From positions 5,047 to 69,046 of the forward strand of contig CBFGUK010000004.1 in the NCBI GenBank assembly GCA_965651925.1: a stretch of 64,000 bases of DNA, in the 5' to 3' direction. Source of the DNA: an uncultured bacterium (GTDB lineage: Bacteria; Desulfobacterota; Binatia; HRBIN30; CADEER01). Below are positions 11,465-42,970 of this stretch, in pieces. Positions within the stretch are counted from its first letter, which is position 1; each line of letters starts with the position of its first letter. The notes beneath the pieces are model-generated. The model was not told the DNA's origin. It saw nothing but the letters and a program-made list of their open reading frames with translations, and did not search any database. The translations under genes were made by a program, and so were the position numbers.

Positions 11465-11537
11465 TCAGCCGTCAGCGATCAGCTGTCGGCCACTCCGCAT
11501 TTCTGGCTGAGAGCTGATGGCTGAAGCTGAGAGCTGC
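11465..11537. repeat. Inverted 7-nt-periodic repeat element (TCAGC / GCTGA arms)
   Basis: TCAGC at 11465, 11472, 11479 and TCGGC at 11486; GCTGA at 11506, 11513, 11520, 11526 and GCTGC at 11533. Confidence 0.8.
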
Positions 11538-11538
11538 T

Positions 11539-14022
<2,484 letters not shown>

Positions 14023-14167
14023 TCAGGTCCGGCGCCCGAATGAAAGGCGGTTGTGAAAAGAATATGCGTGATATTTCAGCCACTTACCGGATCGATTGAC
14101 CCTTTTCGCCGGGCTGCTCGGAAGGCGCGCCGGAGGGCCGTGCAACGGGCGCGATCCGCGCCCGTTC

Positions 14168-15274: not shown

Positions 15275-15308
15275 GGCTCACCGCGTGCGCCATTCGGGCG
15301 CTACTCTG

Positions 15309-15496
15309 ATTCTTTTTAAAAGAAGAAAGAAAAGAAACCAGTCGATAGTAGGGGCTGTGGATGTGTGGAAATCGGTGCGGCACATGGCCGAAACCAGCGT
15401 GCGGGTGCGGAGAACGGGTGCGGAAACCCGGCTGCGCGTCCCTGCCTCACCATTCCGCTCACATCCCCTCCACCGCGTCTCCGCATGTCATCCACA
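15309..15496 (-). other. oriC: Replication origin oriC (DnaA boxes, DnaA-trios, AT-rich unwinding element)
   Basis: dnaA-dnaN intergenic region. Overlapping box-like TGTGGATGT (15356-64) and TGTGGAAAT (15364-72), GGGG spacer, GATAGTAG trios, AT-rich tract 15309-15337, and TCATCCACA at 15488-96. Confidence 0.85.
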
Positions 15497-15549
15497 GGGG
15501 CACGCCGCGGGCGCACCGGCCGGCGGATTGATGGCGTACTCATGGCACT

Positions 15550-16893
15550 TCAGCTCGATCGTTCCAAGAGTCGCTCGAGGCGTTCGACGGTCGCGCGGAA
15601 GGCGGGATCCTCGCGCAGCCGGCGTTCGATGACCTGCGCCGCGTGGATGACCGTCGAGTGGTCGCGGCCGCCAAAGCGGTCGCCGATGACCGGGAACGAC
15701 GCGCTCGTGTAGCGCCGGCAGAGATACATGGCGATCTGGCGCGGCTCGGTGACGTTGCGCGTACGCTTCTTCGAGCGCAGGTCGTTGGGGCGGATGCGGT
15801 AGAACTCGCAGACCGCCTTCTGGATCGACTCGATCGTCACCGCGTGCTCGGCGCGATCGCGCAGGACGCTCTGCAGGACCTCGCGCGCGAAGTCGACCGT
15901 CAGCGGGCACTTGTTCAGCGAGGCGAAGGCGCCCAGGCGCGTCAGCGAGCCCTCGAGCTCGCGGACGTTCGAGTCGATGTTGGTGGCCAGGTAGAGCGCG
16001 ACCTCCTGCGGCAGCTCGATGCCCTCGACCTCGGCCTTCTTCTCGAGAATCGCGACCCGCGTCTCGATGTCGGGCGGCTGGATGTCGGCGATCAGGCCCC
16101 ACTCGAAGCGGTTGCGCAGCCGCTCCTCGAGATCCGGGATCTCCTTCGGGAACTTGTCGGACGTGAGGACGATCTGGTGGTGACTGTCGTAGAGCGAGTT
16201 GAACGTGTGGAAGAACTCCTCCTGCGTCCGTTCGCGGCCGGCGAGGAACTGCACGTCATCGACGATCAGCACGTCGATGCGCCGGAAGCGGGACTTGAAC
16301 TCGTCCATGCGGTCGCGGCGCAGCGCGCCGATGAGCTCGTTCATGAACGATTCGGAGGAGAGATAGACGACGCGCGCGTCCTCGTTGCGGTCGAGCACGC
16401 GGTGGCCGATCGCGTTGACGAGGTGCGTCTTGCCGAGGCCGACCCCGCCGTAGATGAACAGCGGGTTGTAGTGGTCGCCCGGCTGGTTGGCGACCGCCTG
16501 CGACGCGGCGTGCGCGAACTGGTTGCTCGCCCCGACGACGAACGTGTCGAACGTGTACTTCGGCAGCAGCGCCTGGCGGCGCGGCGAGACGCGCGGCGGC
16601 GGGGGCTCCTGCGGGGCCGGTGGCGGCGGCGGGAAGAGCTCCTGCTGCCCGCTGTTGGCGACCGTCAGCGTGATCGTGCGCAGGCCGCCCGCACTCGCCT
16701 GGACGAGCGCCCGCTCGAGCAGCGACAGGCAGCGCTCGCGCACGACATCGGCCGCCAGCTTGCCCGGCGCCTCGACGACGATCGTCTCGCCGCGCGCCAC
16801 CACCGGCCGCAACCGGGCGAGTGTCTCGCGCACATCGGCTTCCGCGATCAGGTTGGTGACGGTCTCAAGCGCCGCCCGCCAGGTTTTTTCCAT
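15550..16893 (-). CDS. dnaA: Chromosomal replication initiator DnaA
   Basis: YTFDTFVVGASN, YNPLFIYGGVGLGKTHL, QEEFFHTFN, GGRDHSTV; start moved to MEKTW. Confidence 0.97.
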   Translation of the reverse strand: MEKTWRAALETVTNLIAEADVRETLARLRPVVARGETIVVEAPGKLAADVVRERCLSLLERALVQASAGGLRTITLTVANSGQQELFPPPPPAPQEPPPPRVSPRRQALLPKYTFDTFVVGASNQFAHAASQAVANQPGDHYNPLFIYGGVGLGKTHLVNAIGHRVLDRNEDARVVYLSSESFMNELIGALRRDRMDEFKSRFRRIDVLIVDDVQFLAGRERTQEEFFHTFNSLYDSHHQIVLTSDKFPKEIPDLEERLRNRFEWGLIADIQPPDIETRVAILEKKAEVEGIELPQEVALYLATNIDSNVRELEGSLTRLGAFASLNKCPLTVDFAREVLQSVLRDRAEHAVTIESIQKAVCEFYRIRPNDLRSKKRTRNVTEPRQIAMYLCRRYTSASFPVIGDRFGGRDHSTVIHAAQVIERRLREDPAFRATVERLERLLERSS

Positions 16894-16907
16894 AGCTACC
16901 GGAGAAG

Positions 16908-16996
16908 TTGTCAACAGCCGGGGATCGTGAAAAACCGCCTGTATATCCGAGACGTTGCGGACGCTGTGCGGGGTCTCTCCACAGCGCAATCCACAG
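16908..16996. promoter_or_regulatory. Degenerate DnaA-box cluster upstream of dnaA
   Basis: TTGTCAACA (16908), CTCTCCACA (16975), CAATCCACA (16987). Confidence 0.55.
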
Positions 16997-17068
16997 GTCG
17001 TTCCGGATCCGATGCCAGTAGTCTTTTGCGTCGGGAAAAGGAATGTTCCCCGCCGAGGACGGGCGAGC

Positions 17069-17097
17069 GATGTACCCCGTTCGCCGTGGGCGGGCAA
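17069..17097 (-). promoter_or_regulatory. Candidate sigma70 promoter for dnaA
   Basis: TTGCCC-17 nt-TACATC on the minus strand. Confidence 0.35.
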
Positions 17098-17254
17098 GGA
17101 AAATCTCCGCCGGACGGCCGTTCGCGGCGGACGCACACGGCAGTGCCTGCGACGGCGCGGCGGGGGGCGAGAGGCGCGCGAATGCGGAGCAGTGTCGTCG
17201 GGCATCCGGGCGCAGCATCTTGCTCGGCACGGCGGCGAGAGATAGCGGCGCGGC

Positions 17255-18541
17255 ATGAAGCACGGCATCTCCGAGAAGCTGTTCGCCGAGGCGGCAGCAT
17301 TGATCCCCGGCGGCGTCAACAGCCCGGTGCGCGCCTGGAAGGCGGTCGGTGGGGCGCCGCGCTTCATCCAGCGCGCGGCGGGCTGCACGATCACCGATGC
17401 CGACGGCAACTCGTACATCGACTACGTCGGCTCGTGGGGGCCGATGATCGTCGGCCACGCCCACCATCAGGTGCTGCGGGCGATCCAGGCGGCGATGAAG
17501 GAGGGCACGAGCTTCGGGGCGCCGACGCCGCGCGAGATCGAGATGGCGCGCCGGCTGACGGCGGCGCTGCCGTCGATGGATCAGGTGCGCCTGGTCTCCT
17601 CCGGCACCGAGGCGACGATGACCGCGATCCGCCTCGCGCGTGCCTTCACCGGGCGGCCGAAGATCATCAAGTTCGACGGCTGCTATCACGGCCACGCCGA
17701 CGCCCTGCTGGTGCGCGCCGGCTCGGGCGCGATGACGCTCGGCGTCCCTGACAGCCCGGGGGTGCCGGAGGCGATCGCCAGCCTGACGCTGGTGGCGCGG
17801 TTCAACGATCTCGACGAGCTCGCGGCGCGCTTTGCCGCCGAGGGCGAGGCGATCGCCGCCGTCATCGTCGAGCCGGTGGTCGGCAACATGGGTCTCGTCC
17901 CGCCGGCACCGGGGTTCCTCGAGGGGCTGCGCCGACTGACCGCCGATCACGGCGCGGTGCTGATCTTCGACGAGGTGATGACTGGCTTCCGCCTCGCCTG
18001 GGGCGGCGTGCAGAACCCCATGGGCATCCGGCCGGACCTGACCTGTCTCGGCAAGGTGATCGGCGGCGGCCTGCCGCTCGCCGCGGTCGGCGGCCGGCGC
18101 GAGATCATGGAGCAGCTCGCGCCGATCGGCGCCGTCTACCAGGCAGGGACGCTCTCCGGAAACCCGCTTGCGGTGAACGCCGGGCTGGCGACGCTCGACC
18201 TGCTCGACAAGCCGGGCACCTACGAGCGGCTCGAGGCGGCGGGCGCGGCCCTCGAGGCGGGGCTGCGCGACGCCTTGCAGCGTCACGGCGTGCCGGGCTG
18301 CGTCAGCCGCCGCGGCTCGATGTGGACGCTGTTCTTCGGCGTCGAGTCGGTCACCGACGCCGGCGATGCCCGGCGCGCCGACACCGCCCGGTTCGCCCGC
18401 TTCTTCACCGCGATGCTCGAGCGCGGCGTCTACCTGCCGCCGTCCCAGTTCGAGGCGGCGTTCCTCTCGCTCGCCCACGGCGACGGCGACATCGAGACGA
18501 CGCTGACGGCGGCGGACCAGGCGTTGGCGACGGTGCGCTGA
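17255..18541 (+). CDS. hemL: Glutamate-1-semialdehyde 2,1-aminomutase
   Basis: [50 protein letters not shown]. Confidence 0.97.
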
Positions 18542-18545
18542 GCCG

Positions 18546-18598
18546 CCAGCGATCAGCGGTCAGTCTTCAGGCCGGCTGACCGCTGACAGCAGACGGCC
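18546..18598. repeat. Inverted 7-nt-periodic repeat element, same unit as 11465
   Basis: CCAGC, TCAGC, TCAGT, TCAG at 18546, 18553, 18560, 18567; GCTGAC, GCTGAC, GCAGAC at 18575, 18582, 18589. Confidence 0.75.
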
Positions 18599-18617
18599 GT
18601 TTGCGTACTGTCGTTCC

Positions 18618-18830
18618 ATGCAGCTCGACCGCCAGTTCGTCGTCAACAGCGGCCGCTACCTCGCGCTCGGGTTCCAGATCGCCGGCTCGATCGTCGGCGG
18701 GCTGATCGCCGGCTACTACCTCGACCACTGGCTCGGCACGGCACCGCTCTTCACGCTGCTGTTCGCGATCGGCGGGCTGTACGGCTCCCTCCGTATCTTG
18801 CTCTGGTCGTTGAAAAGACCTAGTCGGTAA
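18618..18830 (+). CDS. AtpZ/AtpI-family F0 accessory protein
   Basis: LGFQIAGSIVGG...GYYLDHWLGTAP; first gene of the F0 operon. Confidence 0.85.
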   Translation: MQLDRQFVVNSGRYLALGFQIAGSIVGGLIAGYYLDHWLGTAPLFTLLFAIGGLYGSLRILLWSLKRPSR

Positions 18831-18838
18831 CGGTTTCC

Positions 18839-19201
18839 ATGACGGCTCGGTTGCGCGACATCGAGCGGCTCCACGTCGGGCTGCTGGCGGTGGTGGTGTG
18901 TGCCGTTTGGCTCACCGGCTGGCTGTCCGTCCCGGGCGTCCTGCTCGGCGGCGCGGTGATGGGGGTCAACTTCTGGCTCATGCGCCAGCTCGCCGCGCGG
19001 CTGCTCGTGCCGGCCCGCGTCGAGCAGCCCGGGCTCGTCATGCTGTTCATGGTCGCGAAGTTCGCGCTCTTCGTCGGCCTTCTCGCGCTGCTCTTCTGGC
19101 GCGTTCCGGTCGACGGCGTCAGCTTCGCCGCCGGCGCCACACTGCTGCTGGTCGCGAGCGTGCTCACGACGCTGCGCGCCCCGCAGCCCGTTCACTCCTG
19201 A
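18839..19201 (+). CDS. atpI: ATP synthase subunit I-like membrane protein
   Basis: Four hydrophobic segments, GVNFWLM; directly before atpB. Confidence 0.75.
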
Positions 19202-19212
19202 GGCAGGAATCC

Positions 19213-19974
19213 ATGGCTGCAGGCACCGAACACGGCTTTACCTGGATGCAGGTCATCCCCGGGCTGAACCTGCTCCCCGATCACGTCGCCACCGCCGGCG
19301 TCGTCACCGCCGGGCTGATCGGCACCGCCTGGCTGGCGCGCCGCCAGCTGGCGCGCACGGTCGATGTCGCGGTGCCCGACGGCACGCTGACGGCGCGCAA
19401 TTTCATGGAGATCTTCGTCGAGCAGTTCGGCGCGCTCGCCGAAGGCATCATCGGCCCGAAGGGCCGGCAGTACATGCCGCTCTACGGCGCGCTCTTCCTG
19501 TTCATCCTCATCAACAACCTCATCGGCCTGGTGCCCGGCTTTTCGCCGGCGACGAGCAACGTCAACACGACGCTCGGCCTCGGGGCGCTGTCGTTCGTCA
19601 TGTACAACGTCTACGGCTTCCGGGAGCACGGCATCGGCTACCTGAAGCACTTCCTCGGGCCGATCTGGTGGCTGGTGTTCCTCATGCTGCCGCTGGAGAT
19701 CATCGACAACATCCTGCGGCCGCTGACGCTCAATCTGCGTCTGTTGATGAACATGTTCGCCGATCACCTGGTGCTCGACATCTTCACCGACCTCACCAAG
19801 GTGATCATTCCGGTCGTCTTCTACATGCTCGGGACGTTCGTCTGTGTCATCCAGGCGTTCGTCTTCACGCTGCTCAGCATGGTGTACGTGTCGCTCGCCA
19901 CCGCGAGCCACGGCCACGACGAGGAGCACGGGCACGGCGGTCATGCGGCCGCCCACGCTCACGGGCATCACTGA
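19213..19974 (+). CDS. atpB: ATP synthase F0 subunit a
   Basis: [35 protein letters not shown]; His-rich tail. Confidence 0.95.
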
Positions 19975-20084
19975 GTCGTTCCATTTCCACAGGGGTTCGC
20001 GTGGCCGAGGTGGTGGCGAGGAGGACAGAGAGGCGTGGCCGGGAAGCGACCCCTCCTATCCGCATCGAAAGGAGGACTGAGACG

Positions 20085-20402
20085 ATGCGCAAGAAACTGA
20101 TGTGGGTGAGCACGCTGCTGCTCGGAGTGTTTGCGCCGAGCCTGGCCGCCGCGCAGGAGGCGGCGGGCGGGACCGGTGACGGCCTGATCGCCGTCGGCGC
20201 CGGCCTCGGCATCGGCATCGCCGCGATCGGTGCCGGCCTCGGCCAGGGCAAGGCGGTGGCCGCCGCGATGGAGTCGATCGGCCGCAATCCGAACGCCGCC
20301 GATCGCATCCAGACGCCGCTGATCATCGGCCTCGCGTTCATGGAAGCGCTGGCGATCTACGCCCTGGTGATCGCGTTCTTCCTGCAGGGCAAGGTCGGCT
20401 GA
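20085..20402 (+). CDS. atpE: ATP synthase F0 subunit c with N-terminal extension
   Basis: [22 protein letters not shown]; AGGAGG ribosome-binding site. Confidence 0.95.
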
Positions 20403-20429
20403 GCCGATCCGCAGAGCACGAAGCATCGA

Positions 20430-20460
20430 GGGGCAGGCTGCGAGGCCTGCCCCTTTTTTT
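20430..20460 (+). terminator. Rho-independent terminator after atpE
   Basis: GGGGCAGGC / GCCTGCCCC stem followed by T7. Confidence 0.9.
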
Positions 20461-20463
20461 ATC

Positions 20464-20488
20464 CGCAGATCACGCAGATGACGCAGAT
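20464..20488 (+). repeat. 9-nt-periodic CGCAGAT triplet
   Basis: CGCAGAT at 20464, 20473, 20482. Confidence 0.6.
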
Positions 20489-20791
20489 CAGCGATCGAAC
20501 ACCGTCATCGGCGGATGACCGCAGTTGCCGTCGTCAGCCCAGCCGGCTGCCTGCGGTCCAGGGCCGGAGCAGCGCGAGACGACGCATGGAGCCCCCTTTC
20601 CCCAGCGGCGGCGGGATCGGAACCACGGCCGGCCGCACCACAACCGCTGCCGCGCCCATATGGCAGTCGGCGCGGCAAGTCCATTCGACCACGGGCGCGG
20701 TGCCGGCGTGCAGGAAGTCGGCGGAGCGGCACAGCGGAGCGCGACCGTTTCCTTGTCGTTGACGCACAGTCGCGGTAAGAGTCCGCGGCAG

Positions 20792-21631
20792 ATGGCGCTG
20801 ACGCGGACGGTGGTGGCGGGGACGATTCTGCGCGGATCGCGGACGACGCTGACCGCGGTGCCGATCGACCGGGTGCATCCGAATCCCGAGCAGCCGCGCC
20901 GCCACTTCGACGAGGACGCGCTCGCCGAGCTCGCCGCGTCGATCAACCAGCACGGCATCCTGCAGCCGGTAATCGTCAAGCGCGACGGCGACGGGTTCCT
21001 GATCATGGCCGGCGAGCGCCGCTACCGCGCCGCCCGCCTCGCCGGGCTCACCGTCATCCCGGCGCTGGTGCGCAACGACGATCCGCTCGAGATCGCGATC
21101 ATCGAAAACCTGCAGCGCGAGAACCTCTCGCCACTCGAGGAAGCCGAAGGCCTCGGGGCGTTGATCGATCAGTACGGCTACACCCACGAGGCGCTCGCCG
21201 AGGTGATCGGCAAGAGCCGGCCGTACGTCAGCAACACGCTGGCGTTGCGCCGCCTGCCCGAGGACATCAAGCGCGAGGTGCACGCGCAGCCGGACGTGTC
21301 GCGCGAGATTCTCATCTCGCTCGCGCGCGCCGAGACGCCCGAGAAGCAGGCGACGCTCTGGCGCCTGACGCGCGCGCGCAAGCTGTCGGTGCAGCGCTTC
21401 CGCGCCGAGCAGGCGGGCGCACCGGTGGCGCGCGACGAGATCGCGGATCTCGCGCGCCAGCTGCGCCGGCTCGGCCGCCGGCTGCGCGCACTCGACACCG
21501 CCGTTCTCGCGCCCGCCGAGCGCCAGCAGCTCGACCGGCTGCTGCGCCGCGCCAACGCCCGCATCCTGCGCACGCTGGCGGCGCTGGAAACACGGGCCGA
21601 CACCGAGCCTGCCGTCCCCCCCGGCCAATGA
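20792..21631 (+). CDS. Orphan ParB/Spo0J-family CTPase DNA-binding protein
   Basis: PNPEQPRRHF, GILQPVIV, AGERRYRA, IIENLQRENL, HTH GKSRPYVSN; start uncertain. Confidence 0.9.
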   Translation: MALTRTVVAGTILRGSRTTLTAVPIDRVHPNPEQPRRHFDEDALAELAASINQHGILQPVIVKRDGDGFLIMAGERRYRAARLAGLTVIPALVRNDDPLEIAIIENLQRENLSPLEEAEGLGALIDQYGYTHEALAEVIGKSRPYVSNTLALRRLPEDIKREVHAQPDVSREILISLARAETPEKQATLWRLTRARKLSVQRFRAEQAGAPVARDEIADLARQLRRLGRRLRALDTAVLAPAERQQLDRLLRRANARILRTLAALETRADTEPAVPPGQ

Positions 21632-31101: not shown

Positions 31102-32226
31102 CTACAGGCGCAGGTGCGTCGCCACCAGATCCTTCATCAGCTCGGAGACGCCGCCGCCGAGGCTGAGCACCCGGACATCGCGATAGACGCGCGTCACCCA
31201 GTTTTCCTCGAGGAAGCCCGCTCCGCCGTGCAGCTGCAGGCACTGTTCGACCGCGCGCTGCACGATCTCGACGACCTTGAACTTGATCATGCTGATCTCG
31301 CGCTGCATCTGCTGGCCGTCGCGGAGCTCGACGCCCACCGAGTGGACGAAGCGGCGCGCCATCTCGATCTCGGCGGCGATGTCCGCGATGCGGTGGCGCA
31401 CCGCCTGCAGCCCGGCCAGCGTCGCGCCGTACGCGGGTCGCGCGCGGACGTGGTCGATGGTCGCCTCGAGTACCAGCGTCGCGGCGGCGACGGCGCTCGC
31501 CGCGCCGAGCAGGCGCTCCAGTCCGAGAGTCTGCGTGACGTAGAAGTAGCCGACGTGCGGCTTGCCGAGCAGCGCGGTCTTCGGCAGCGCACAGCGCTCG
31601 AACGTCAGCCAGCCGGTCGGCGAGGTGTGCATGCCGAGCTTGCGCAGCGTCTCGACGCGGAACCCCGGCGTGTCGGTCGGCACGATGAAGAGTGACAGGC
31701 TGTTCGGCGACGGCTCGGGCCGGGTGCGCGCCAGGACGAGGACGAAGTCGGCGATCGGACCGTTGGTGATGAACTTCTTCTCGCCGCTCAGCACCCAGCG
31801 GTCGCCGTGCTCCTCGGCCGTGCAGTGCACGGCGCGCACGATGTCGGATCCGCCGGTGGGTTCGGTGATCGCCAGCGCACCGATCTTCTCGCCGCGCCGC
31901 GCCGGCACGAGAAAGGTCTCCTGCTGCGCCGGCGTGCCGAAGCGCTCGAGCAGTCCCGAGAAGAATGTCGCCTGGGCGAGCACACTCAGCGCCAGGCCCA
32001 TCATCCGCGACCGCGGCAGCTCCTCGGCGAGGATGACCGCATGCCCGAGGTCGCCGCCGTCGGCCGGCGCCACGTGCAGGAACCCGGCCCCGCCGAGCGC
32101 GGTGAACACCGAGCGCGGCAGGGTGGCCTCGCGTTCCCAGGTGTCGGCGTGCGGGGTCAGGTGCTGCTCGATGAACGCGCGCAGCCGGGCGCGGAACGCC
32201 GCATGCGCGGGACCGAAGAGGCTCAT
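31102..32226 (-). CDS. Acyl-CoA (or acyl-ACP) dehydrogenase
   Basis: ALAITEPTGGSD, GEKKFITNG, QLHGGAG, YRDVR. Confidence 0.92.
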   Translation of the reverse strand: MSLFGPAHAAFRARLRAFIEQHLTPHADTWEREATLPRSVFTALGGAGFLHVAPADGGDLGHAVILAEELPRSRMMGLALSVLAQATFFSGLLERFGTPAQQETFLVPARRGEKIGALAITEPTGGSDIVRAVHCTAEEHGDRWVLSGEKKFITNGPIADFVLVLARTRPEPSPNSLSLFIVPTDTPGFRVETLRKLGMHTSPTGWLTFERCALPKTALLGKPHVGYFYVTQTLGLERLLGAASAVAAATLVLEATIDHVRARPAYGATLAGLQAVRHRIADIAAEIEMARRFVHSVGVELRDGQQMQREISMIKFKVVEIVQRAVEQCLQLHGGAGFLEENWVTRVYRDVRVLSLGGGVSELMKDLVATHLRL

Positions 32227-32492
32227 GCGCGCGCCGCCACCACGCCGTGGATGTACTCGACGATGGCGCCGAACCGGTTCAGCTCGACGATGTGAATCGG
32301 ATCGAGCTCGACACCGTACTCGTCCTCGAGCGCCACCTGCAGCTCGAGGAACGCGACCGACTGCATGCGCAGATCCTCATCGATCAGCGCGGCATCCGAC
32401 ACCTGCTCGGGCGGAATCTTCGCGATCTCCTCCAGCAGCGCGACGATCCGCTGGCGCACCGCAGCACGAGTCGGCGTTACTTCGTTCATCAT
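32223..32492 (-). CDS. Acyl carrier protein-like
   Basis: Acidic, 89 aa; LIDEDLRMQSVAFLELQVALEDEYGVEL; ATGA overlap with the dehydrogenase. Confidence 0.8.
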   Translation of the reverse strand: MMNEVTPTRAAVRQRIVALLEEIAKIPPEQVSDAALIDEDLRMQSVAFLELQVALEDEYGVELDPIHIVELNRFGAIVEYIHGVVAARA

Positions 32493-34398: not shown

Positions 34399-34534
34399 CC
34401 GGGCGGCGGCGGAGGCCGCACGCGACCGCTGTTCGTGCGGAGCGCACGCGCGGCGCAAATCGCGATTGCGGCAGCGGGCATTCTCCGGCAAGCAGACGCG
34501 TGGCGGTCGCGGGCAGCGACCCCGGGGAGGTGCG

Positions 34535-36709
34535 ATGCGGGGCGGAGTGGTGATGATCGGGGTGCTGGCGGCGCTGCTCGCGTCGGCGTGCGGCGACGGC
34601 GACAGCGGCGGGACGCGCGCGGCGCGGCCGAACATCCTGTTCGTCATCATGGACGACGTCGGCATCGATCAGTTGGCGACGTTCGGCTATGGCGGCGAGA
34701 CGCCGCCGAGCACGCCGGACATCACCGCCCTTGCCGACCGCGGGCTGCGCTTCCGCAACACCTGGGCGATGCCCGCCTGCACGACCAGCCGGGGCGTGTT
34801 CTTCGACGCGCGCTTCCCGCTGCGCACCAACGTCAAGGGCGCGCTCGGACCCGACGATCTCGCCAACTCGATGGTGTCGCCGTACGAGGTGACCGTTCCC
34901 AGGCTGCTCGCCGCAGAGGGATACGAGAGCGCGCTGTTCGGCAAGTTCCACCTCGGTCTGCAGGGCAAGGATCCCGCCGGGCTCGGCATGCCGGCCAATC
35001 TGGGCTGGGACTGCTTCGCCGGCTGGCTCGACGAGACCGGCGATCCGTCGTCCATCGACACCACCGCCGGTGGCGTGGCGCCGGCGGACCGGTGGTCGTG
35101 CGGGTTCGTCGGCGGCGCCGCCGCGGGCGGCGCGGACCGCGGCGCCTGCTACTTCGCCGACGACAGCTGCATCGAGCTCGAGAACAGCATCGTGCCGCCC
35201 GGCCGGATCTGCCGCGATCGCGGCGGCATCTTCGATCCGGCGCCGCCGCCGCAGGGCAGCACGCAATACTGCCGCACGCCGCGACCGGCGTACGTCGACT
35301 TCAGCATCCTGAGCGGCCACTACGTTTCGCCGCTCGTCTACAATCGTCCGGGCAGCGCGCCGGAAAAGGTCGAGCCGACCGATCCGCGCGCCCGCCAGTT
35401 CCGCGCCAGCTTCGTGGTCGATGCGGCGATCGAGTGGATTAACGCTCGTCCCGCGAACACGCCGTGGATGGCGACGGTGAGCTTCGCCTCCGATCACACG
35501 CCGCTCATGCAGCCGCCGTACGATCCCGACGTGCCGGGCAGCGCCGCGGCCTCGGCGCTCGACTGCACCGAGCCGGTCGACCAGCGCGTGCTGTCGAACC
35601 TGATGATCGAATCCCTCGACCGCGAGCTCGGCCGCCTGCTGGTGGCAACCGGTCTGGCGCGGCGCGGCCGCGACGGTCGGCTGGTCTACCGCCCCGGTGC
35701 GACGGACACGATGATCATCATCGTCGGCGACAACGGCAGCCTCGGCACGACGGTGAAGGTGCCGTTCGACGTCTCGCGCGCCAAGGGCACCGCGTACCAG
35801 ACCGGGGTGTGGGTGCCGCTGGTCGTCGCCGGCCCGCTCGTCGCGCACCCCGGCCGCGCCGTGCCGCACATGGTCAACGTCGCCGATCTCTTCGCCCTGT
35901 TCGGCGAGATCGCCGGCATCGACGACGTCCAGGCGCGCGTGCCGCGTCCGATCGACGCCGTCCCGATGCTCCCGTACCTCACCAACCCGCGCCAGGAGGC
36001 GCTGCGCGCCTGGAACTACACCGAGGTCGGCGTGAACCTGCAGGCCGACGGCGCCATCAACGCGCCGTGCGTGATCGGTGGCGGCTGTACGCAGATCCCC
36101 GTGTCGCAGAGCGTCTGCGAGGACAACAACGGCGTCTGGTGGGGCCCCGGGCACGATGCCGCGATCACCGAGGGCGCGCCCGAGGAGGGATTCCAGTACT
36201 GCTGCGAGGTGAACGCCTTCGTCATCGCCAATCAGCGCGAGGAGGAACCGTACAACATCACGCCGTTGACCTCGGTGGGCATTCGCAATGCGCGCTACAA
36301 GATCGTCGAGAATCAGCTGCGCGCCTACGTTTCGCAGGACGAGCCCTGCGTCGACACCACCACCGTCGAGTTCTTCGAGATCAACGAGGCAGTGCCCGTG
36401 CCGAAACTCGATCGCGAGGAAGACGCGCTGCCGCTCGATGCGCTGACGCCGGAGCAGCAGCGCCAGTTCGACGCGCTCTCGGCCCAGCTCGCCGCGATCC
36501 GCGCCTCGGTGCCGGACTGTGTCGGCGACGGCAATGCCGACTTCGTCGTCGACCAGACCGACCTCGAGGAGTGGCAGCGCTACGCCGATGCCGGCGGGGG
36601 GTCGAGCTGGTACGACATCAATCTCGACGGCGTCACCGACGAGCTCGATCGGCAGATCATCGCCGCCCGACTCGGCTCCCAGTGCAGCGCCCCGCCGGTC
36701 TCGCCGTAG
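34535..36709 (+). CDS. Sulfatase-family lipoprotein with C-terminal dockerin/EF-hand-like repeats
   Basis: Lipobox LASAC; PNILFVIMDDVG; CTTSR; GKFHLG; GDNG; GDGNADFVVDQTDL and DINLDGVTDELD. Confidence 0.85.
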   Translation: MRGGVVMIGVLAALLASACGDGDSGGTRAARPNILFVIMDDVGIDQLATFGYGGETPPSTPDITALADRGLRFRNTWAMPACTTSRGVFFDARFPLRTNVKGALGPDDLANSMVSPYEVTVPRLLAAEGYESALFGKFHLGLQGKDPAGLGMPANLGWDCFAGWLDETGDPSSIDTTAGGVAPADRWSCGFVGGAAAGGADRGACYFADDSCIELENSIVPPGRICRDRGGIFDPAPPPQGSTQYCRTPRPAYVDFSILSGHYVSPLVYNRPGSAPEKVEPTDPRARQFRASFVVDAAIEWINARPANTPWMATVSFASDHTPLMQPPYDPDVPGSAAASALDCTEPVDQRVLSNLMIESLDRELGRLLVATGLARRGRDGRLVYRPGATDTMIIIVGDNGSLGTTVKVPFDVSRAKGTAYQTGVWVPLVVAGPLVAHPGRAVPHMVNVADLFALFGEIAGIDDVQARVPRPIDAVPMLPYLTNPRQEALRAWNYTEVGVNLQADGAINAPCVIGGGCTQIPVSQSVCEDNNGVWWGPGHDAAITEGAPEEGFQYCCEVNAFVIANQREEEPYNITPLTSVGIRNARYKIVENQLRAYVSQDEPCVDTTTVEFFEINEAVPVPKLDREEDALPLDALTPEQQRQFDALSAQLAAIRASVPDCVGDGNADFVVDQTDLEEWQRYADAGGGSSWYDINLDGVTDELDRQIIAARLGSQCSAPPVSP

Positions 36710-36732
36710 GCCGGCGGCGGTCCGGTGTCCGC

Positions 36733-36843
36733 TCAGAACGCCACGTACACGAACGGTTCGAGCGGCAGGCCGATGCGATACAGCATCCAGTGCAGCACGA
36801 CGGCGGCCGCGACGCCGAGCAGCAGCGCGCGCAGGGTGGTCAT
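36733..36843 (-). CDS. 36-aa DltX-like single-TM peptide with C-terminal tyrosine motif
   Basis: MTTLRALLLGVAAAVVLHWMLYRIGLPLEPFVYVAF*; ATGA overlap with the upstream stop; GGGAGAGAG ribosome-binding site. Confidence 0.8.
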   Translation of the reverse strand: MTTLRALLLGVAAAVVLHWMLYRIGLPLEPFVYVAF

Positions 36844-37982
36844 TGGTTCTCTCTCCCGAGGTGTGACGCCAGACGCCTGACCGCAGGAGCCACGGCGGCG
36901 GCGAGCTTGTCGCCGCCGCTCGGGGTCAGATGCGTCACATCGAGGTAATCCGCTGCGGTGAAATCCCGCCCGGTGATCACGCTGTGGTAGCCGGCCGCCC
37001 GCCAGCGCTGCAGCGTGCCGGCAAGCATGCGGGCGTGCCGATCGGCATCGCGCGGCGGCAATGCGGCGCGCACGGCGGGATTGACGTCGACGGTCACCAT
37101 GAGCGTGCGCTCGCGCAGCGCGGGTGGCATCACGGCGTGCGTTTCGCGTTCGAATTGCTCCCACGGCTCCGGGCGTTCGACCCAGCCGCCGCCCTGGTCG
37201 GCGAACAGGGCGCTGCTCCAGCGCTGCACCTGCCGCGGCGCCAGTCGCGCGCCGCGCGGCGGCAGCGGCGGGACCGGATCCGGATAGAACCGGCGGGCGC
37301 GGAAGATGCTGTCGGTGGTCTGCAGCGACCAGGCGCTGAACACCCAGCGATAGCCGATCGCGGTCCACAAGTCGTCGAAGAAGAACACGGCGTCGAGCGC
37401 GCCATGCAGCCGCCGCTCGTCATCGTCCGGCTCCGGTGTGGCGTCGACCGCGACGCGGGCGTCGTCAGGGAAGGCGAGCAGGCCTTTCCAGTAGGCGTCC
37501 CAGAACAGATAGCGGAACGGCCGTGCGCCGCCGGGCGGTCCGCAGGTGGCGGGGATCGCGTTGGCGACCAACAGCACGCGCGGGTAGCGGTTCCAGAGCA
37601 CGTTCAGCATCACGCTGGGGATGTCGCCCGGGAGGCTGAACGCGGTCGCGAGGTTGACGACGCAGAACGACGGACCGAGGAGCGCTTCGAGCCGTGCGGT
37701 CCAGATGCGCTCGGGTGGCTGGCCGTAGCCATTGAAGACCGAGTTGCCGCCGACGAGCACGACCGTCTGATCGCGCGCGCAGCGCGCCTCGACGGTGGCG
37801 AGCAGCTGGGACGCGGTCGGGAAGAAGTTCGTCTCCGCCGCCGTGTAGCGATGCAGGCGGACGAATCCATCGTCGGCGAGCGGATGCGCGGCGAACCAGC
37901 GTCCCGCCAGAGCGCACGCGAGCAACCCGCACACGACGCCGAGCAGGAAACGACGCGGAGCGGTCGCCGCCGTACCACTCAC
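36840..37982 (-). CDS. Membrane-anchored SGNH/DltD/AlgJ-like acyltransferase
   Basis: N-terminal TM, VLVGGNSVF (block-I Ser), DYLDVTHLTPSG (DxxH); GTGA overlap with the MBOAT stop. Confidence 0.75.
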   Translation of the reverse strand: MSGTAATAPRRFLLGVVCGLLACALAGRWFAAHPLADDGFVRLHRYTAAETNFFPTASQLLATVEARCARDQTVVLVGGNSVFNGYGQPPERIWTARLEALLGPSFCVVNLATAFSLPGDIPSVMLNVLWNRYPRVLLVANAIPATCGPPGGARPFRYLFWDAYWKGLLAFPDDARVAVDATPEPDDDERRLHGALDAVFFFDDLWTAIGYRWVFSAWSLQTTDSIFRARRFYPDPVPPLPPRGARLAPRQVQRWSSALFADQGGGWVERPEPWEQFERETHAVMPPALRERTLMVTVDVNPAVRAALPPRDADRHARMLAGTLQRWRAAGYHSVITGRDFTAADYLDVTHLTPSGGDKLAAAVAPAVRRLASHLGRENQ

Positions 37983-39187
37983 GGCGTCACCAGCAGCCGC
38001 GCGATCTCGAGCGCGCGCGGCACGGGATAGAAGAACAGCAGCCAGCCGAACCACACGAACGCGGTGGTCAGCGCCCAGCCGACGATCGGCGCTCGCGCCA
38101 GCACGGCGGCGATGCCGCGGCCGACCGGTCCGAACGCCGTCGCGTAGGTGGCACTCAGGCCGAGACCGACGCCGTGGTACACGCCCCAGAGGACGAAGTT
38201 CCACGCCGGCCCATGCCACAGTCCGCACAGGGCCATCGCGGCGAAGGCGTTGCCGACGCGGCGCGCGCCGCCATAGCGGTTCCCGCCGAGCGGGATGTAG
38301 ATGTAGTCGCGGATCCAGGTCGACAGCGAGATGTGCCAGCGTCCCCAGAATTCCTGCAGGCTGGTCGCGACATACGGCCAGTTGAAGTTCTCGGGCAGCC
38401 GGATACCGAGGACCCGCGCGAGACCGATGGCGATGTCGCTGTAGGCGCTGAAGTCGGCGAGAATGCGGAACGCCAGCGCCGCCAGGAAGAGCCAGCGCTC
38501 GGCCAGCGACGCGGTGCCGAGGTGCTGTTCCGCCTGCCCGATCCAGCCGGTCAGATTGTCGGCGATCAGCAGCTTCTTGCCGTAGCCGAGCGCGATGCGC
38601 GCGACGCCGGCGGCGAGGTCGGCGAGACGTCGTTCGTGGTCCCGGCGGGCGACGCTGCTGCGCAGCTCGGGGAGGAAGTCGCCGTAGCGCTTGATCGGCC
38701 CGGCGGCCAGTGACGGAAAGAAGATCGTGAAGAGCGCGAATTCGGCGGGGTTGCGGATCGCTCCGTGCCCGCGCCGCACTTCCATCAGGTAGTGCACGAA
38801 CTCGAAGGTGAAGAAGCTGATGGCGAGCGGTGGCGCGGCCGGCAGGATCTGCTCGAACGCCGTGCGCACCGCCTCCCCGAATCCGGGATGGATCGGCGCC
38901 AGGATGCCGTCGGAGATGAAGGCGCCGTACTTGTAGACGATCAGCGCCGCGGCGGCGAAGACGATGCCGCACGTGCACGCCGTTCGTCCGCCGAGCAGCG
39001 CGAGGCTGTACGTCGCCACGCCGATGACCACGATCGGCGCCACGCCGGCCGCGCCGGCGAAGTGGCCGTGGAAGATGATCGACGCGACGAGCAGCCACGC
39101 GAGCCGCACCCATCCCGCTGGTGCGAGCAGCAGTCCCGCGCACGCGACGACCGCGAAGACGACGAACCAGTACGTCGTGAAGATCAT
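37979..39187 (-). CDS. MBOAT-family O-acyltransferase (AlgI/DltB-like)
   Basis: PLAISFFTF, FFPSLAAGPI, DFSAYSDIAIG, PENFNWPY, FWGRWHISLSTWIRDYIYIPLGG, GLWHG. Confidence 0.95.
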   Translation of the reverse strand: MIFTTYWFVVFAVVACAGLLLAPAGWVRLAWLLVASIIFHGHFAGAAGVAPIVVIGVATYSLALLGGRTACTCGIVFAAAALIVYKYGAFISDGILAPIHPGFGEAVRTAFEQILPAAPPLAISFFTFEFVHYLMEVRRGHGAIRNPAEFALFTIFFPSLAAGPIKRYGDFLPELRSSVARRDHERRLADLAAGVARIALGYGKKLLIADNLTGWIGQAEQHLGTASLAERWLFLAALAFRILADFSAYSDIAIGLARVLGIRLPENFNWPYVATSLQEFWGRWHISLSTWIRDYIYIPLGGNRYGGARRVGNAFAAMALCGLWHGPAWNFVLWGVYHGVGLGLSATYATAFGPVGRGIAAVLARAPIVGWALTTAFVWFGWLLFFYPVPRALEIARLLVTP

Positions 39188-39378
39188 GCGCGTCTGCCGG
39201 CCCGCGCGTCGGCCCGCGCGACGACCAGCCGCGAGATGTGAGCGGGGCTCGGCGCCTGGTCTGTCCCGCTTCGGTCCCGCACGTCCCCTCGCTCGCTTCT
39301 CTACTCGCTCCGGGCGGCCGAAAAGGCAAAGTCGACCGGCGCCGTCCGCGTTGCCCGCGGACGGCACGTTGCCGACGG

Positions 39379-40581
39379 TCAGGCGAGGGCGAGCAGGGCG
39401 TCGCCGATCGCGGTCAGCGCGCGTTCGGTATCCCGCTCGGAGATGATCAGTGGCGGCGCAAGGCGGACGACGGTGTCGCGGTGCAGCGTCCAGTTGAGGA
39501 TCAGCCCGCGGCGGAGCGCCTCGGCGCAGAACGCCTGGGTGAGTGCCGGCGAGGCGAAATCGAGACCGAGCAGCAGGCCGCGTCCACGCACCCCGGTGAG
39601 CACCGGGCCGGTCAGCTCACCGAGGCGGTACCGCCAGCGGCTGCCGACCTCGGCGGCGCGCGCCGGCAGATCCTCGCGCGCCAGCACCTCGAGTGCCGCA
39701 AGCCCGGCGGCACAGGAGAGCGGGTGGCCGCCGAACGTCGTCACGTGCGCGAGCGGCGGATCGTGGGAGAGCGTCGCCATCAGTTCCGGGCGACCGACGA
39801 ATGCGCCGAGCGGCAGGCCGCCGCCGAGTGCCTTGGCGAGCACGAGCACGTCGGGCACGACGTCCCACTGCTCGCAGGCGAACCAGGTGCCGGTGCGGCC
39901 GAAGCCGGTCATCACCTCGTCGCATACGAGCAGCGCGCCGGTGGCATCGCAGCGCGCGCGCAGGGCCGGCAGAAACGCCGGTCCCGGGACCCGCACGCCC
40001 CCCTCGCCCTGGATCGGTTCGACGACCACCGCAGCGACGCGGTGATCGATGCGATCGAGCGCCTCGAGATCGTCGAACGGCAGGAACTCGACGTCGCCGA
40101 GCAGCGGCTCGAACGGCGGCCGGTAAACCGGACTGTCGCACAGCGACAGCGCGCCCATCGTGTCGCCGTGATAGGCGCCGCGGAAGGTGACGAAACGCGA
40201 TCGACCGGTCGCCTTGCGAGCCAGCTTGAGCGCGCCTTCGATCGCCTCGGTGCCGCTGTTGCAGAAGTAGGTGACCGACAGCGCTCCCGGTGCCCGCGCC
40301 GCGAGCGCCGCGGCGAGGTGGACCTGCGGCGCCTCGACCGCCTCGCCGTACACCATTACGTGCAGGTAGCGCTCGGCCTGCGCGCGCACCGCGGCGATGA
40401 CCTCGGGATGACCGTGTCCGACGTTCGCGACGCCGATGCCGGAGAGCAGATCGAGGTACTCGCGACCCTCGACATCCCACACCGACGTTCCAGCGGCGCG
40501 CTCGACGACGATGCCGAGCGGCGCCGGCGACGTCTGGCAGACATGGCGCAGGAACAGCCCGCGCAGCGCGTCAGCCGTCAT
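39379..40581 (-). CDS. Class-III PLP aminotransferase (ArgD/ornithine aminotransferase-like)
   Basis: NSGTEAIE, YHGDT, EPIQGEGG, DEVMTGFGRTG, LAKALGGG, TTFGGHP. Confidence 0.92.
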   Translation of the reverse strand: MTADALRGLFLRHVCQTSPAPLGIVVERAAGTSVWDVEGREYLDLLSGIGVANVGHGHPEVIAAVRAQAERYLHVMVYGEAVEAPQVHLAAALAARAPGALSVTYFCNSGTEAIEGALKLARKATGRSRFVTFRGAYHGDTMGALSLCDSPVYRPPFEPLLGDVEFLPFDDLEALDRIDHRVAAVVVEPIQGEGGVRVPGPAFLPALRARCDATGALLVCDEVMTGFGRTGTWFACEQWDVVPDVLVLAKALGGGLPLGAFVGRPELMATLSHDPPLAHVTTFGGHPLSCAAGLAALEVLAREDLPARAAEVGSRWRYRLGELTGPVLTGVRGRGLLLGLDFASPALTQAFCAEALRRGLILNWTLHRDTVVRLAPPLIISERDTERALTAIGDALLALA

Positions 40582-41824
40582 CGGTCACCCAATCCGTGAG
40601 GCGCGGCCGTCCGCCCTGCCGCCACGCGAGCGGCGGCTGCTGCATCGCGCCGAGCGGGCTGACCAGCGCCACGCCGCACGCCGCGAGCCGCTGCGCGATC
40701 GTCTCCCAGCGTTCCGGTTCGGCGCCGAGCCCGGTGCCTTCCAGTACACTGCACACCGGGGCGAGCAGCGCCGGGAGCGCATCGAGATCGGCGATCGGCA
40801 TGACGCGCAGCGTGCGCCCGAGCGGCGACGGGACGAAACGGGCGCGGGGTTCGACGATCACCGTGCCTGCCGCCTCATCGGCCGCGGCCAGCAGGGAAAT
40901 GCGTTCGCCGTCGAACGTCGCCCACTCGGCCGAATCGCGCAGGCGGCGGATGGCGAGGCGCTGTCCCAGCGACATCGACGCGGGCGGCAATGACTCGGCG
41001 AGCCGTGCGAGCTCGGCGGCGAGCTCGGTGGCGAAGGCCTCCGCCTGCGCGCGGGTCCCCTCGACGAAGCAGAGCTGTGGTGACAGGCAGCCGCGCTGAT
41101 CCCACAGGGCGGTATCGAATGCCAGCGCGGCGGCACTGGTCCGCTCGCGGGCGGCGGCGGCAGTGACGAGCGCGAAGCTGATCCGGTGTCCGTGGCCGAT
41201 GAATCGGCCGCGGGTACGGGCGGCGAGGGCGGCGATCGTCTCATCGTCGCCGGCGGCGACGACGAGATCGGCGGTGTCGAGCGCGAGCGCGCCGGCGGTG
41301 TGGTCGTCGCCTGGCCAGTAGTGCACCGCGAGCGCGTCGGCGAGGCTGCGATCATGTGCGGCGAGGCTGGCGTGAAACAGAGCGGGGAAGACGCGATCGC
41401 CGCGACCGGGCTTGATGAGGGCGGCGGAACCGATGGCGAGCGACAGCGCCGCGGGAATCGCGGCGAGGCCAGGCAGGTTCCCGGGCAGGATGTGGAGAAT
41501 GAGCGGCGGGCCGTGCCGGGTGCCGGCCTCGCGCGCCACCAGCGCGGCGAGCGCCGGCGCGCGCAGCGGCGTGAGCATGGTGGGCAGGGCGGTGCGCAGC
41601 ATCGGGAGCGAGAAGCCGGTCGCGGTGGGCAGCTCGGCGAGCGCGCGGTCCATCCACGGCGAGTCGGGCGCGAGCCAGGCCTCGACGATGGCGTCGAGCG
41701 CCGCGAGGACGTCGTCGCGCCGGCGAGCACGCAGCGCGCGGCGCGCTTCACGCAGAGCGACCAGGCCCGCGCGCAGGTCGGCGGCATCGGGACGCGTCGC
41801 GGCAGCGGGATCGAGATCGCTCAT
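40571..41824 (-). CDS. LuxC-like acyl-protein/acyl-CoA reductase
   Basis: Tail of ORF 40571..43492: HILPGNLPG, FIGHGHRISF, WDQRGCLSPQ (catalytic Cys), GAMQQPP. Confidence 0.85.
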   Translation of the reverse strand: MSDLDPAAATRPDAADLRAGLVALREARRALRARRRDDVLAALDAIVEAWLAPDSPWMDRALAELPTATGFSLPMLRTALPTMLTPLRAPALAALVAREAGTRHGPPLILHILPGNLPGLAAIPAALSLAIGSAALIKPGRGDRVFPALFHASLAAHDRSLADALAVHYWPGDDHTAGALALDTADLVVAAGDDETIAALAARTRGRFIGHGHRISFALVTAAAARERTSAAALAFDTALWDQRGCLSPQLCFVEGTRAQAEAFATELAAELARLAESLPPASMSLGQRLAIRRLRDSAEWATFDGERISLLAAADEAAGTVIVEPRARFVPSPLGRTLRVMPIADLDALPALLAPVCSVLEGTGLGAEPERWETIAQRLAACGVALVSPLGAMQQPPLAWRQGGRPRLTDWVTDDG

Positions 41825-42888
41825 GGCGCGTCCCACTGCAGGGCGCTGAGCGAGCAGCCGCGGGCCTCGGCACCGGGGGCGCGACCGAGGAGCTGAAAGC
41901 CGTCCTGGTCCGCGACGCCGAGGTCTTCGGACAGCACGGCGACGGCGCTGCCGGCGTTCGCGAGGTCGACGTGGCACAGCAGGCCCGGTGTGCCGGGCGG
42001 CACCGGCGCGAGCGTTGCGGGATCGAGGATCCGTACGCGCGCCCAGTGCGGGCCGCGCTTGCGACGCGGGGCATGGCGGCCGGCGACGCGGTCGGCGATG
42101 ACGCTGTCGTAGTACTGGCTCGACAGCTCCGCCATGCCGTACTCGTTGACGACGAAGTAGCCGGGGATGGCGAACGCGTTCCACACCGCGTGCAGCAGTC
42201 CCCGGCGCGACAGCGCCCGCGGGGCGCCCTTGTCGCCGCCGGTATCCATCAGGCGGCTGCCGTGCGGCAGACGCACCGCAATGGCGCGGGCCGCGAGCGC
42301 ATCGAGGGCGCGGATCAGCGCTCCGGTGGTGGTGAGAATGGCGAGCGGACGGCCGTCGCGTTCGCTCGCCGCGAGCGCGGCGATGAACGCCTCGGTATCG
42401 AGCGCATCGACGGCGGCGGCGTAGCGGACATCCGCGCCGTGCGTCTCGATCGCCCAGGCGACCATCTGCGCGAGCGACGACTGCGGCTGCGCACTGGCGG
42501 GCGGAATGAGCGACACGATGCGCATGCGCTCGACATCGGGGAAGAGGAAGCGGCGCAGGCCGGCACGCGCCGACTGATGATACAGACGCAGGTCGGGCAC
42601 GAGGTGGCGCGAGCGCGTCTCGGGGCCGGCGGTCGTGCCGCTCGAGAGGAACGTGCGCTCCGGCGGGCCGCAGGTCAGGGCGGCGTGCTTGAAGGCGACG
42701 ATCGGCACCGGCGGAATCGCGCGCCAGTCGGCGACCGTCGCCGGGGTCGCGCCGCGGCGCTCGGCGTACTCCCGATACGCGGGACAGCAGGCGAACTGAT
42801 GCGCGAACACCGCCAGCGCGAGGTCTTCGAAGCGATCGGCGGCGGGGTCGGCGATGAACGCCAGGACCCGATCGTAGGGCGCGTCCAC
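41821..42888 (-). CDS. LuxE-like acyl-protein synthetase
   Basis: IPPVPIVAFK, FLSSGTT, MDTGGDKG, NEYGMAELSSQ, DLAN, LLGR...EARGCS. Confidence 0.88.
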   Translation of the reverse strand: MDAPYDRVLAFIADPAADRFEDLALAVFAHQFACCPAYREYAERRGATPATVADWRAIPPVPIVAFKHAALTCGPPERTFLSSGTTAGPETRSRHLVPDLRLYHQSARAGLRRFLFPDVERMRIVSLIPPASAQPQSSLAQMVAWAIETHGADVRYAAAVDALDTEAFIAALAASERDGRPLAILTTTGALIRALDALAARAIAVRLPHGSRLMDTGGDKGAPRALSRRGLLHAVWNAFAIPGYFVVNEYGMAELSSQYYDSVIADRVAGRHAPRRKRGPHWARVRILDPATLAPVPPGTPGLLCHVDLANAGSAVAVLSEDLGVADQDGFQLLGRAPGAEARGCSLSALQWDAP

Positions 42889-42941
42889 CCGCCGACGGTA
42901 GCCGGTCGCCGGCAGCGATGCCACGCGCCCGCGAGAGCACC

Positions 42942-42970
42942 TTGACACGTTCCATGGTGACAGACAGCAT
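42942..42970 (+). promoter_or_regulatory. Candidate sigma70 promoter
   Basis: TTGACA-17 nt-CAGCAT, 16 nt upstream of ATG 42987. Confidence 0.35.

Follow-up and report, generated by a model that had tools for sequence, protein, structure and literature searches.

A three-gene module encoding a short DltB-like MBOAT protein, a DltD-like SGNH enzyme and a 36-residue microprotein: a probable split acyl relay outside the Dlt pathway

A stretch of 64,000 nucleotides (70.6% G+C) of contig CBFGUK010000004.1, from the genome of an uncultured bacterium of the Binatia, was analysed over its whole length, hereafter referred to as the window. On its minus strand, at positions 36733-39187, three consecutive genes are encoded, namely a membrane-bound O-acyltransferase (MBOAT), a protein predicted to adopt the SGNH fold and a microprotein of 36 amino acids (aa) ending in a tyrosine motif. 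The three genes are the following:

37979-39187, minus strand: MBOAT acyltransferase of the short DltB type (402 aa, ATG start, beginning MIFTTYWF and ending LLVTP)
36840-37982, minus strand: DltD-like transferase with a predicted SGNH fold (380 aa, GTG start)
36733-36843, minus strand: single-helix microprotein, putative acyl-tyrosine shuttle through Tyr33 (36 aa, ATG start, ending PFVYVAF)

The initial annotation of this DNA had described three translationally coupled genes, and the junctions bear this out: the stop codon of the MBOAT gene and the GTG start of the SGNH gene overlap by four bases (GTGA), and the stop codon of the SGNH gene and the ATG of the 36-aa open reading frame (ORF) overlap by four bases as well (ATGA). 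A purine-rich sequence, GGGAGAGAG, is present upstream of the start of the 36-aa ORF. A scan of positions 36500-39500 for consensus promoters and terminators returned no promoter; its one terminator-like site falls within the SGNH gene, a yield that does not exceed that of shuffled sequences.

The first gene product belongs to the MBOAT superfamily, with a score of 93.9 bits against PF03062 for a cut-off of 27. Its sole NCBIfam match is the DltB model TIGR04091 (168.7 bits, below the equivalog cut-off of 375), in an alignment that covers model positions 111-376 of 380 and reaches the end of the model; judged by this cut-off, the protein is not a DltB equivalog, although it is DltB-like in architecture. 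Its sequence relatives in the PDB are DltB 6bug and 8jem only (E ~1e-30), and an AlphaFold2 (AF2) model of the protein (predicted local distance difference test, pLDDT, 84.3) also retrieved DltB (6bug, 8jem) best in Foldseek, end to end over ~420 columns, with template modelling scores of 0.73 and 0.70 and an E-value of 1e-11. Neither of these PDB searches, by sequence or by structure, returned a PatA- or AlgI-type structure, so that being closest to DltB partly reflects which structures were available. The WHISLS (His285) and GLWHG (His325) motifs align with the two histidine motifs of DltB, and both histidines are invariant in 23 MBOAT homologues; in DltB, His336 and His289 are named as key residues in a structure paper of 2024 (PMC11035591). 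No C-terminal FxYxxF, the mark of a shuttle fused to the MBOAT as in the PatA/AlgI type, is present in the chain, which stops at residue 402, and none of the 22 aligned homologues (397-404 aa) carries a terminal tyrosine motif. Given this DltB-like length, the end-to-end alignment and the homologues without the motif, the protein is of the short DltB type and not of the longer PatA/AlgI type, in which the motif is carried on two extra helices. The sequence thus agrees with the earlier description of a DltB-like MBOAT of about 402 aa, ending LLVTP and devoid of a fused tyrosine tail.

The second gene product had been labelled an SGNH protein, a label that cannot be read from the family libraries: no match at E ≤ 0.01 was found in Pfam and NCBIfam, including the DltD and GDSL models, and a search of PDB sequences with a profile of the protein gave only matches at E ~1, to TesA-type enzymes. 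The label is nevertheless upheld by the predicted structure and by the invariant residues. A first search found six relatives, and an exhaustive profile search recovered 639 clusters (50% identity) at E ≤ 1e-3, 338 of them at E ≤ 1e-30. Ser81 (in GGNS), Gly103, Asn110 and His351 are invariant in 103 aligned sequences of this family, and Asp348 of the D-x-x-H motif is near-invariant (at least 90% of these sequences). In the AF2 model (pLDDT 96.2), residues 8-31 form an N-terminal helix and an alpha/beta domain comes after it; with both Foldseek and VIA-align the model matches SGNH/GDSL enzymes (Z 11-13). With VIA-align, TesA (4jgg) reaches Z 13.4 over 165 aligned residues, and the DltD entries 3bma, 7dxm and 6o93 reach Z 13.2 over 283, 13.1 over 281 and 12.3 over 285 residues, respectively; the DltD entries give the longest alignments of the model (267-285 residues at Z 12.3-13.2), against only 165-187 residues for the small SGNH/GDSL esterases that also rank at the top. 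Since the Ser/Gly/Asn/His residues are invariant, the D-x-x-H motif is present and the predicted fold is that of the superfamily, the protein is an SGNH enzyme. The model further gives it a DltD-like architecture, with an N-terminal helix and a DltD-type helical insertion, in a family that is not modelled in Pfam or NCBIfam; a membrane helix with a catalytic domain on the outer face is predicted.

The third gene product has a basic N-terminus and a single hydrophobic stretch at residues ~3-21 and ends PFVYVAF, in line with the initial view of one transmembrane helix ending FVYVAF. In terms of sequence it has what a DltX-type shuttle has, that is, the motif F31-V-Y33-V-A-F36 and a single helix following a basic N-terminus, from which a C-terminus facing outwards may be expected. 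Among the 1058 stop-to-stop frames of at least 20 aa in the whole window, this ORF is the only one ending in F-x-Y-x-x-F. Its G+C content at the three codon positions (0.70/0.41/0.92, i.e., GC2 of 0.41 and GC3 of 0.92) matches that of the neighbouring genes.

The conservation of this small ORF was examined in 52 related loci, comprising seven loci from species-representative genomes (all of them metagenome-assembled genomes (MAGs) of Opitutaceae/Opitutae, with SGNH proteins 33-35% identical to that of the window) and 45 metagenome loci. A homologous small ORF is encoded in 45 of the 52, and the three genes form a conserved module. In 33 loci the peptide gene sits between the MBOAT and SGNH genes; the other 12 show the arrangement of the window, with the peptide gene behind the SGNH gene. 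As some loci are duplicates, 34 distinct full peptides were aligned together with that of the window (35 in all). Among them G10, H18, P30, F31 and F36 are invariant, and Y19, Y22, R23, L26, P27, I32 and Y33 are conserved in at least 90%; the nearly invariant P-F-I/V-Y-x-x-F tail is the best conserved part of the peptide, and Tyr33 is kept in 34 of the 35. Over the last 27 codons of the 35 distinct DNA sequences (595 pairs), the mean proportion of synonymous differences (pS) is 0.68 versus a mean proportion of nonsynonymous differences (pN) of 0.19, and the invariant positions use all four proline codons, both phenylalanine codons and both tyrosine codons. The peptide is conserved through rearrangement, in two gene orders, which points to selection on the peptide gene itself. 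From these sequence comparisons, the 36-aa ORF is a real gene under purifying selection; a lack of conservation of the small ORF, which had been named as a finding that would speak against the proposal, was thus not observed. Contigs from four DNA runs (four studies) carry identical low-depth pieces with no variant within the peptide ORF, and are silent on expression and selection.

A profile search of public proteins with the peptide family returned 1041 clusters at E ≤ 0.01. The 120 public peptides listed are all without a Pfam domain, and those that bear a name are called 'hypothetical' or something plainly wrong; the peptides gave only chance membrane matches with Pfam. The expectation that gene callers would miss the peptide therefore holds only in part: it is never correctly named among the entries listed, but 1041 clusters are already called as proteins.

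Separately from the FxYxxF tail, His18 is invariant and Tyr/Trp19, Tyr22 and Arg23 are near-invariant, at the place where the helix exits the membrane.

The related loci without a homologous ORF are of several kinds. In L048 the free peptide is absent and a long MBOAT with a fused NFVYQGF tail is present instead; the motif thus occurs either free or fused, as expected if both forms do the same job. In L051, L055 and L056 the flank due to hold the peptide is cut off, and L052, L058 and L059 are locus fragments. The gene structure also varies: in L016, MBOAT and SGNH are joined in one frame of 872 aa (6567-9185, plus strand), the end of which is overlapped by the microprotein gene (9182-9304, plus strand). 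A protein with an FkbH_N domain is encoded immediately upstream of this fused frame. Furthermore, the peptide of L009 (7808-7906) carries the single Tyr-to-His variant (FIHVAF), seen in this one locus only, which has no MBOAT upstream, and in L008 (7311-7906) the MBOAT is reduced to an internally deleted remnant of 137 aa beside an intact peptide and SGNH gene. The SGNH gene and the peptide can thus persist without an adjacent MBOAT (L008, L009). Within the family of the Opitutaceae MAG that carries L010 (G061), the trio was found in 21 of 121 sampled genomes.

The module was compared with the dltXABCD system for teichoic-acid D-alanylation of Bacillota, using DltB (6bug, 8jem) and DltD (3bma, 7dxm, 6o93). 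It resembles the latter in that (i) it consists of three separate parts, with an MBOAT of ~400 aa lacking a fused tail, as for DltB, DltX and DltD, (ii) the peptide, like DltX, is a single-helix microprotein of similar size ending in F-x-Y-x-x-F, and (iii) the partner and DltD are both SGNH enzymes anchored in the membrane, ~380-390 aa long and equipped with a Ser/Asp/His triad. It differs from it in that (i) it lacks a linked DltA ligase and a linked DltC carrier, (ii) the host is a diderm, unlike the Bacillota, (iii) the peptide has a conserved H-Y-x-x-Y-R-x-x-L-P stretch of its own and fails the DltX Pfam model, (iv) the SGNH protein fails the DltD sequence models, and (v) the gene order is MBOAT-SGNH-peptide or MBOAT-peptide-SGNH, in contrast to dltXABCD, where the peptide comes first. 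That the host is a diderm, as had been assumed, follows from the presence of LpxC and of two Omp85 genes in the genome. MBOAT-SGNH pairs of Gram-negative bacteria include the AlgI and WssH types. With PatA/PatB of peptidoglycan O-acetylation, the module shares a diderm host, the MBOAT-SGNH pair, a probable acyl-coenzyme A (acyl-CoA) donor and the same tyrosine motif; in the PatA/PatB type, however, the MBOAT itself bears this motif, on two additional helices, whereas here the motif is encoded by a separate gene and the MBOAT stops like DltB.

With regard to DltX, none of the 35 peptides matched the Pfam family PF12459 at E ≤ 10, so that they are not placed in this family. A scan of the whole genome with the same model gave no match in the window and a match on a single contig, C91 (30.3 bits, above the cut-off); the locus on C91, with a true DltX-type ORF accompanied by an acyl carrier protein (ACP) and an MBOAT, provides a positive control from within the genome. 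Accordingly, the window peptide is best regarded, by analogy, as a functional counterpart of DltX, to which it is related very distantly at best. As for the initial annotation of a DltX-like peptide within a complete DltB/DltD/DltX-like relay, the FxYxxF tail with its tyrosine, the presence of the three parts and the likeness of their folds stand, whereas membership of the DltX family does not and neither DltA nor DltC accompanies the genes.

The acyl-tyrosine shuttle was elucidated in 2023-2025; its mechanism has been published for DltX and PatA, in which the motif is a proven acyl carrier (PMC12148441). On the strength of the architecture, the catalytic residues and the co-conservation, together with the gene coupling and the folds, we consider it probable that the trio is a split MBOAT-SGNH acyl relay resembling DltB-DltX-DltD but operating outside the Dlt pathway; the acyl-tyrosine chemistry, the donor and the acceptor are inferred from these observations. 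Further support comes from the motif being either free or fused (L048), from the MBOAT-SGNH fusion of L016 with the peptide gene behind it, and from the Tyr-to-His variant of L009, a single locus, occurring where the MBOAT has been lost. In such a relay, the MBOAT would accept the acyl group of a thioester on the cytoplasmic side; as the module is accompanied by neither a carrier protein nor a ligase, this donor is most likely an acyl-CoA, for instance acetyl-CoA. By means of the conserved His325, the MBOAT would pass the acyl group through its tunnel to Tyr33 of the outward C-terminal tail of the peptide. The tail would then swing to the membrane-anchored SGNH enzyme, where the Ser81/Asp348/His351 triad would take over the acyl group, and this enzyme would hand it on to an acceptor outside the cytoplasm, probably a glycan that is secreted or exposed at the surface. 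A prediction of the complex of the MBOAT and the peptide gave a score of 0.02, in a single job run without controls, and speaks neither for nor against the relay.

The following features are encoded or predicted around the trio:

39379-42948, minus strand: LuxE-like synthetase, LuxC-like reductase and class-III aminotransferase, upstream of the trio, the LuxE/LuxC and LuxC/aminotransferase genes overlapping
39320-39376, minus strand: G+C-rich hairpin with a U-containing tail, just past the aminotransferase stop and 130-190 nucleotides before the MBOAT start
32223-32492, minus strand: acyl carrier protein (PP-binding) of 89 aa, the nearest PP-binding gene, 4.2 kb from the trio

The neighbours of the trio in the window are HflX, a dockerin-bearing sulfatase, the LuxE/LuxC/aminotransferase genes and GroEL. 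The ACP gene is followed by an acyl-CoA dehydrogenase gene (31102-32492 for the two, minus strand) and is parted from the trio by the HflX and sulfatase genes, which lie on the opposite strand. The sulfatase-family protein (747 aa; 34466-36709, plus strand) is convergent with the trio and, towards its C-terminus, weakly matches a dockerin-type model (E 7e-4; 20.1 bits for a cut-off of 22.9). The genes gyrA, gyrB, dnaN, dnaA and parB are located at 8923-21631 of the window, as in the neighbourhood of a replication origin, so that the region around the acylation cassette is one of housekeeping genes rather than a glycan island.

According to Pfam and NCBIfam, no DltA ligase or DltC carrier is encoded among the operon genes, so that the locus is not a Dlt pathway. 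In the related loci, 61 neighbour ORFs of eight loci (out of 129 candidates in 11 loci) were scanned, without any PP-binding family at E ≤ 1e-5 or any adenylating enzyme. In four of the eight scanned loci (L010, L025, L040 and L047), the module is flanked by glycan-synthesis genes, which include GT1, GT2 and GT9 glycosyltransferases, an epimerase, a carbamoyltransferase, Wzt and capsule-synthesis genes.

The LuxE-LuxC-aminotransferase genes would provide, on paper, an acid-to-aldehyde-to-amine route. They were considered as parts of the system and rejected, as they are genes of the lineage that adjoin the trio in this genome only and are absent from the related loci. Indeed, a LuxC-like gene is present in 55 of the 61 genomes of a sample of the family, order and class (the window's genome counted), the SGNH family is significant in this sample only in the window's genome (with one further match at E 6e-4), and in two relatives the synteny orf387-LuxE-LuxC-aminotransferase occurs without the trio; none of the 52 related loci, many of them short, has a match to the three genes. 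For these reasons the trio is a patchily distributed cassette beside an unrelated operon. A spacer of 191 nucleotides separates the aminotransferase and MBOAT genes, and the RNA predicted for 39290-39385 (minus strand) folds into a 12-bp G+C stem at -48.5 kcal/mol (z -2.0; equalled by 5 of 200 shuffles). The hairpin at 39320-39376 was not flagged by the consensus terminator scan; it may be a terminator parting the trio from the upstream operon.

Three other shuttle-type loci are encoded in the same genome:

Contig C78, 5584-8107, minus strand: second free-peptide trio, tightly packed (L060)
Contig C91, ~3611-9458, minus strand: Dlt-like locus with an 82-aa ACP, a DltX-type ORF, a 499-aa ORF and an 818-aa ORF with an MBOAT match (L074)
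Contig C12, 6200-7663, plus strand: long MBOAT of 487 aa ending in a fused shuttle motif, PFIYFQF (L061)

The short MBOAT of the second trio has 398 aa and is 49% identical to that of the window over its full length, and the small ORF of this locus ends QFIYVAF, with its stop at 6732. Its SGNH partner (396 aa) matches the Pfam family Lipase_GDSL_2 and belongs to another family than that of the window (BLASTP E 0.22), and its peptide, unlike that of the window, lacks the H-Y-x-x-Y-R stretch. In the Dlt-like locus, the ORF that passes the DltX Pfam cut-off ends GFIYQEF, and a second copy of the tail is found 150 nucleotides further on. The long MBOAT is 40% identical to that of the window over the core, and its neighbours on either side include GT2 glycosyltransferases, a PMT_2-type protein and a sulfatase. 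To judge from these sequences, one genome carries fused, free and DltX-type versions of the shuttle side by side.

Several of the observations weigh against a relay of this kind. The resemblance between the window peptide and DltX comes down to a six-residue motif and the topology, and homology with DltX is unproven since the peptide fails the DltX Pfam model. The H-W/Y-x-x-Y-R stretch at residues 18-23 is conserved but has no role in a shuttle model. L008 and L009 have a full upstream flank and yet no intact adjacent MBOAT. An ACP gene lies only 4.2 kb away, and the search for carriers among small ORFs was a limited check, with none of 15 matching PP-binding families in a partial scan (15 of 214 in 10 loci, after a D-S-hydrophobic pre-filter). 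Finally, no glycan-synthesis gene is found in the window within 5 kb of the trio.

In an alternative explanation, the microprotein would be a structural or regulatory subunit, holding the MBOAT and the SGNH enzyme together or gating the tunnel without a covalent acyl intermediate of its own, and the acyl group would pass directly from the MBOAT to the SGNH serine or to the acceptor. The strong invariants outside the motif (G10 and H18, and nearly so Y19, Y22 and R23) would fit packing or gating, and a regulatory role of DltX and DltD is considered in the DltB structure paper of 2024 (PMC11035591). Against such a role, it is the P-F-I/V-Y-x-x-F tail that is best conserved, with its tyrosine in all but one of the distinct peptides; the same motif carries the acyl group in DltX and PatA (PMC12148441); and a fused tail stands in for the free peptide in L048. 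This explanation is the best of the alternatives and is nonetheless unlikely.

A carrier-dependent, Dlt-like (amino)acylation, with the ligase and the carrier encoded elsewhere, e.g., by the ACP gene at 32223-32492 or by the genes on C91, is likewise unlikely. It could draw on the fact that the only named relatives of the MBOAT are DltB proteins, which use DltC, on the location of the window ACP gene on the same strand as the trio, and on the Dlt-like locus of C91 with its ACP and Pfam-recognised DltX. However, the window ACP gene has an acyl-CoA dehydrogenase gene as its partner and stands behind two opposite-strand genes, the related loci examined showed neither a carrier nor a ligase beside the module, and the closeness to DltB is in part an effect of the structures present in the PDB, which yielded no PatA/AlgI-type entry.

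It is very improbable that the trio and the LuxE/LuxC/aminotransferase genes form one six-gene pathway supplying or processing an unusual fatty acyl or amine substrate: all six are adjacent on the same strand and the upstream genes overlap one another, but LuxC-like genes are spread through the lineage sample and the SGNH family is, within that sample, nearly confined to the window's genome, the synteny exists without the trio in two relatives, the related loci (many of them short) lack the three genes, and a spacer with a strong hairpin lies between the two sets. The possibility that the 36-codon ORF is a chance open frame, for which its shortness and the frequency of long spurious frames in 70% G+C DNA might speak, is negligible in view of its conservation in two gene orders with pN well below pS, its four-nucleotide coupling, its gene-like codon-position G+C, its being the sole frame of the window with the motif and the 1041 public clusters.

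Within the reading of the trio as a split acyl relay, the extra H-Y-x-x-Y-R stretch could be the sign of a further role, for example gating of the tunnel or a second acyl-accepting tyrosine. In the current picture, the free peptide, DltX, is found only in Gram-positive D-alanylation and the motif is fused elsewhere (PMC12148441); the DltX relay work of Schultz et al. (2023) is summarised in Anderson et al. (2025), which presents the non-Dlt MBOAT/SGNH pathways as having no DltX-like microprotein (PMC12148441). No description of such a free peptide outside Dlt was found in the open literature, and similar microproteins may already stand in the survey or supplements of Schultz et al. (2023). The module represents a third arrangement, in which a free shuttle peptide, an MBOAT of DltB length and a DltD-like enzyme occur together, without D-alanine genes, in Gram-negative-type lineages.

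In summary, the balance of the evidence inclines us, with some reserve, to regard the trio as a member of a large undescribed class of diderm split acyl-tyrosine relays, which would be independent of a carrier. In this class, short DltB-like MBOATs would have ceded the shuttle motif to free microproteins that show no detectable sequence relationship to DltX, and the SGNH partners would come from two or more unrelated families, both of which can occur in a single genome. If this is true, such a class would contradict the published view, as given in Anderson et al. (2025), that non-Dlt MBOAT/SGNH pathways lack a microprotein (PMC12148441). Two large families without a Pfam or NCBIfam match (the 1041 peptide clusters and the 639 SGNH clusters) would gain a function, and the small three-gene cassettes would serve to test the movement of the tail between two active sites. 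The acyl-tyrosine shuttle would then be a general, modular part of envelope acylation.

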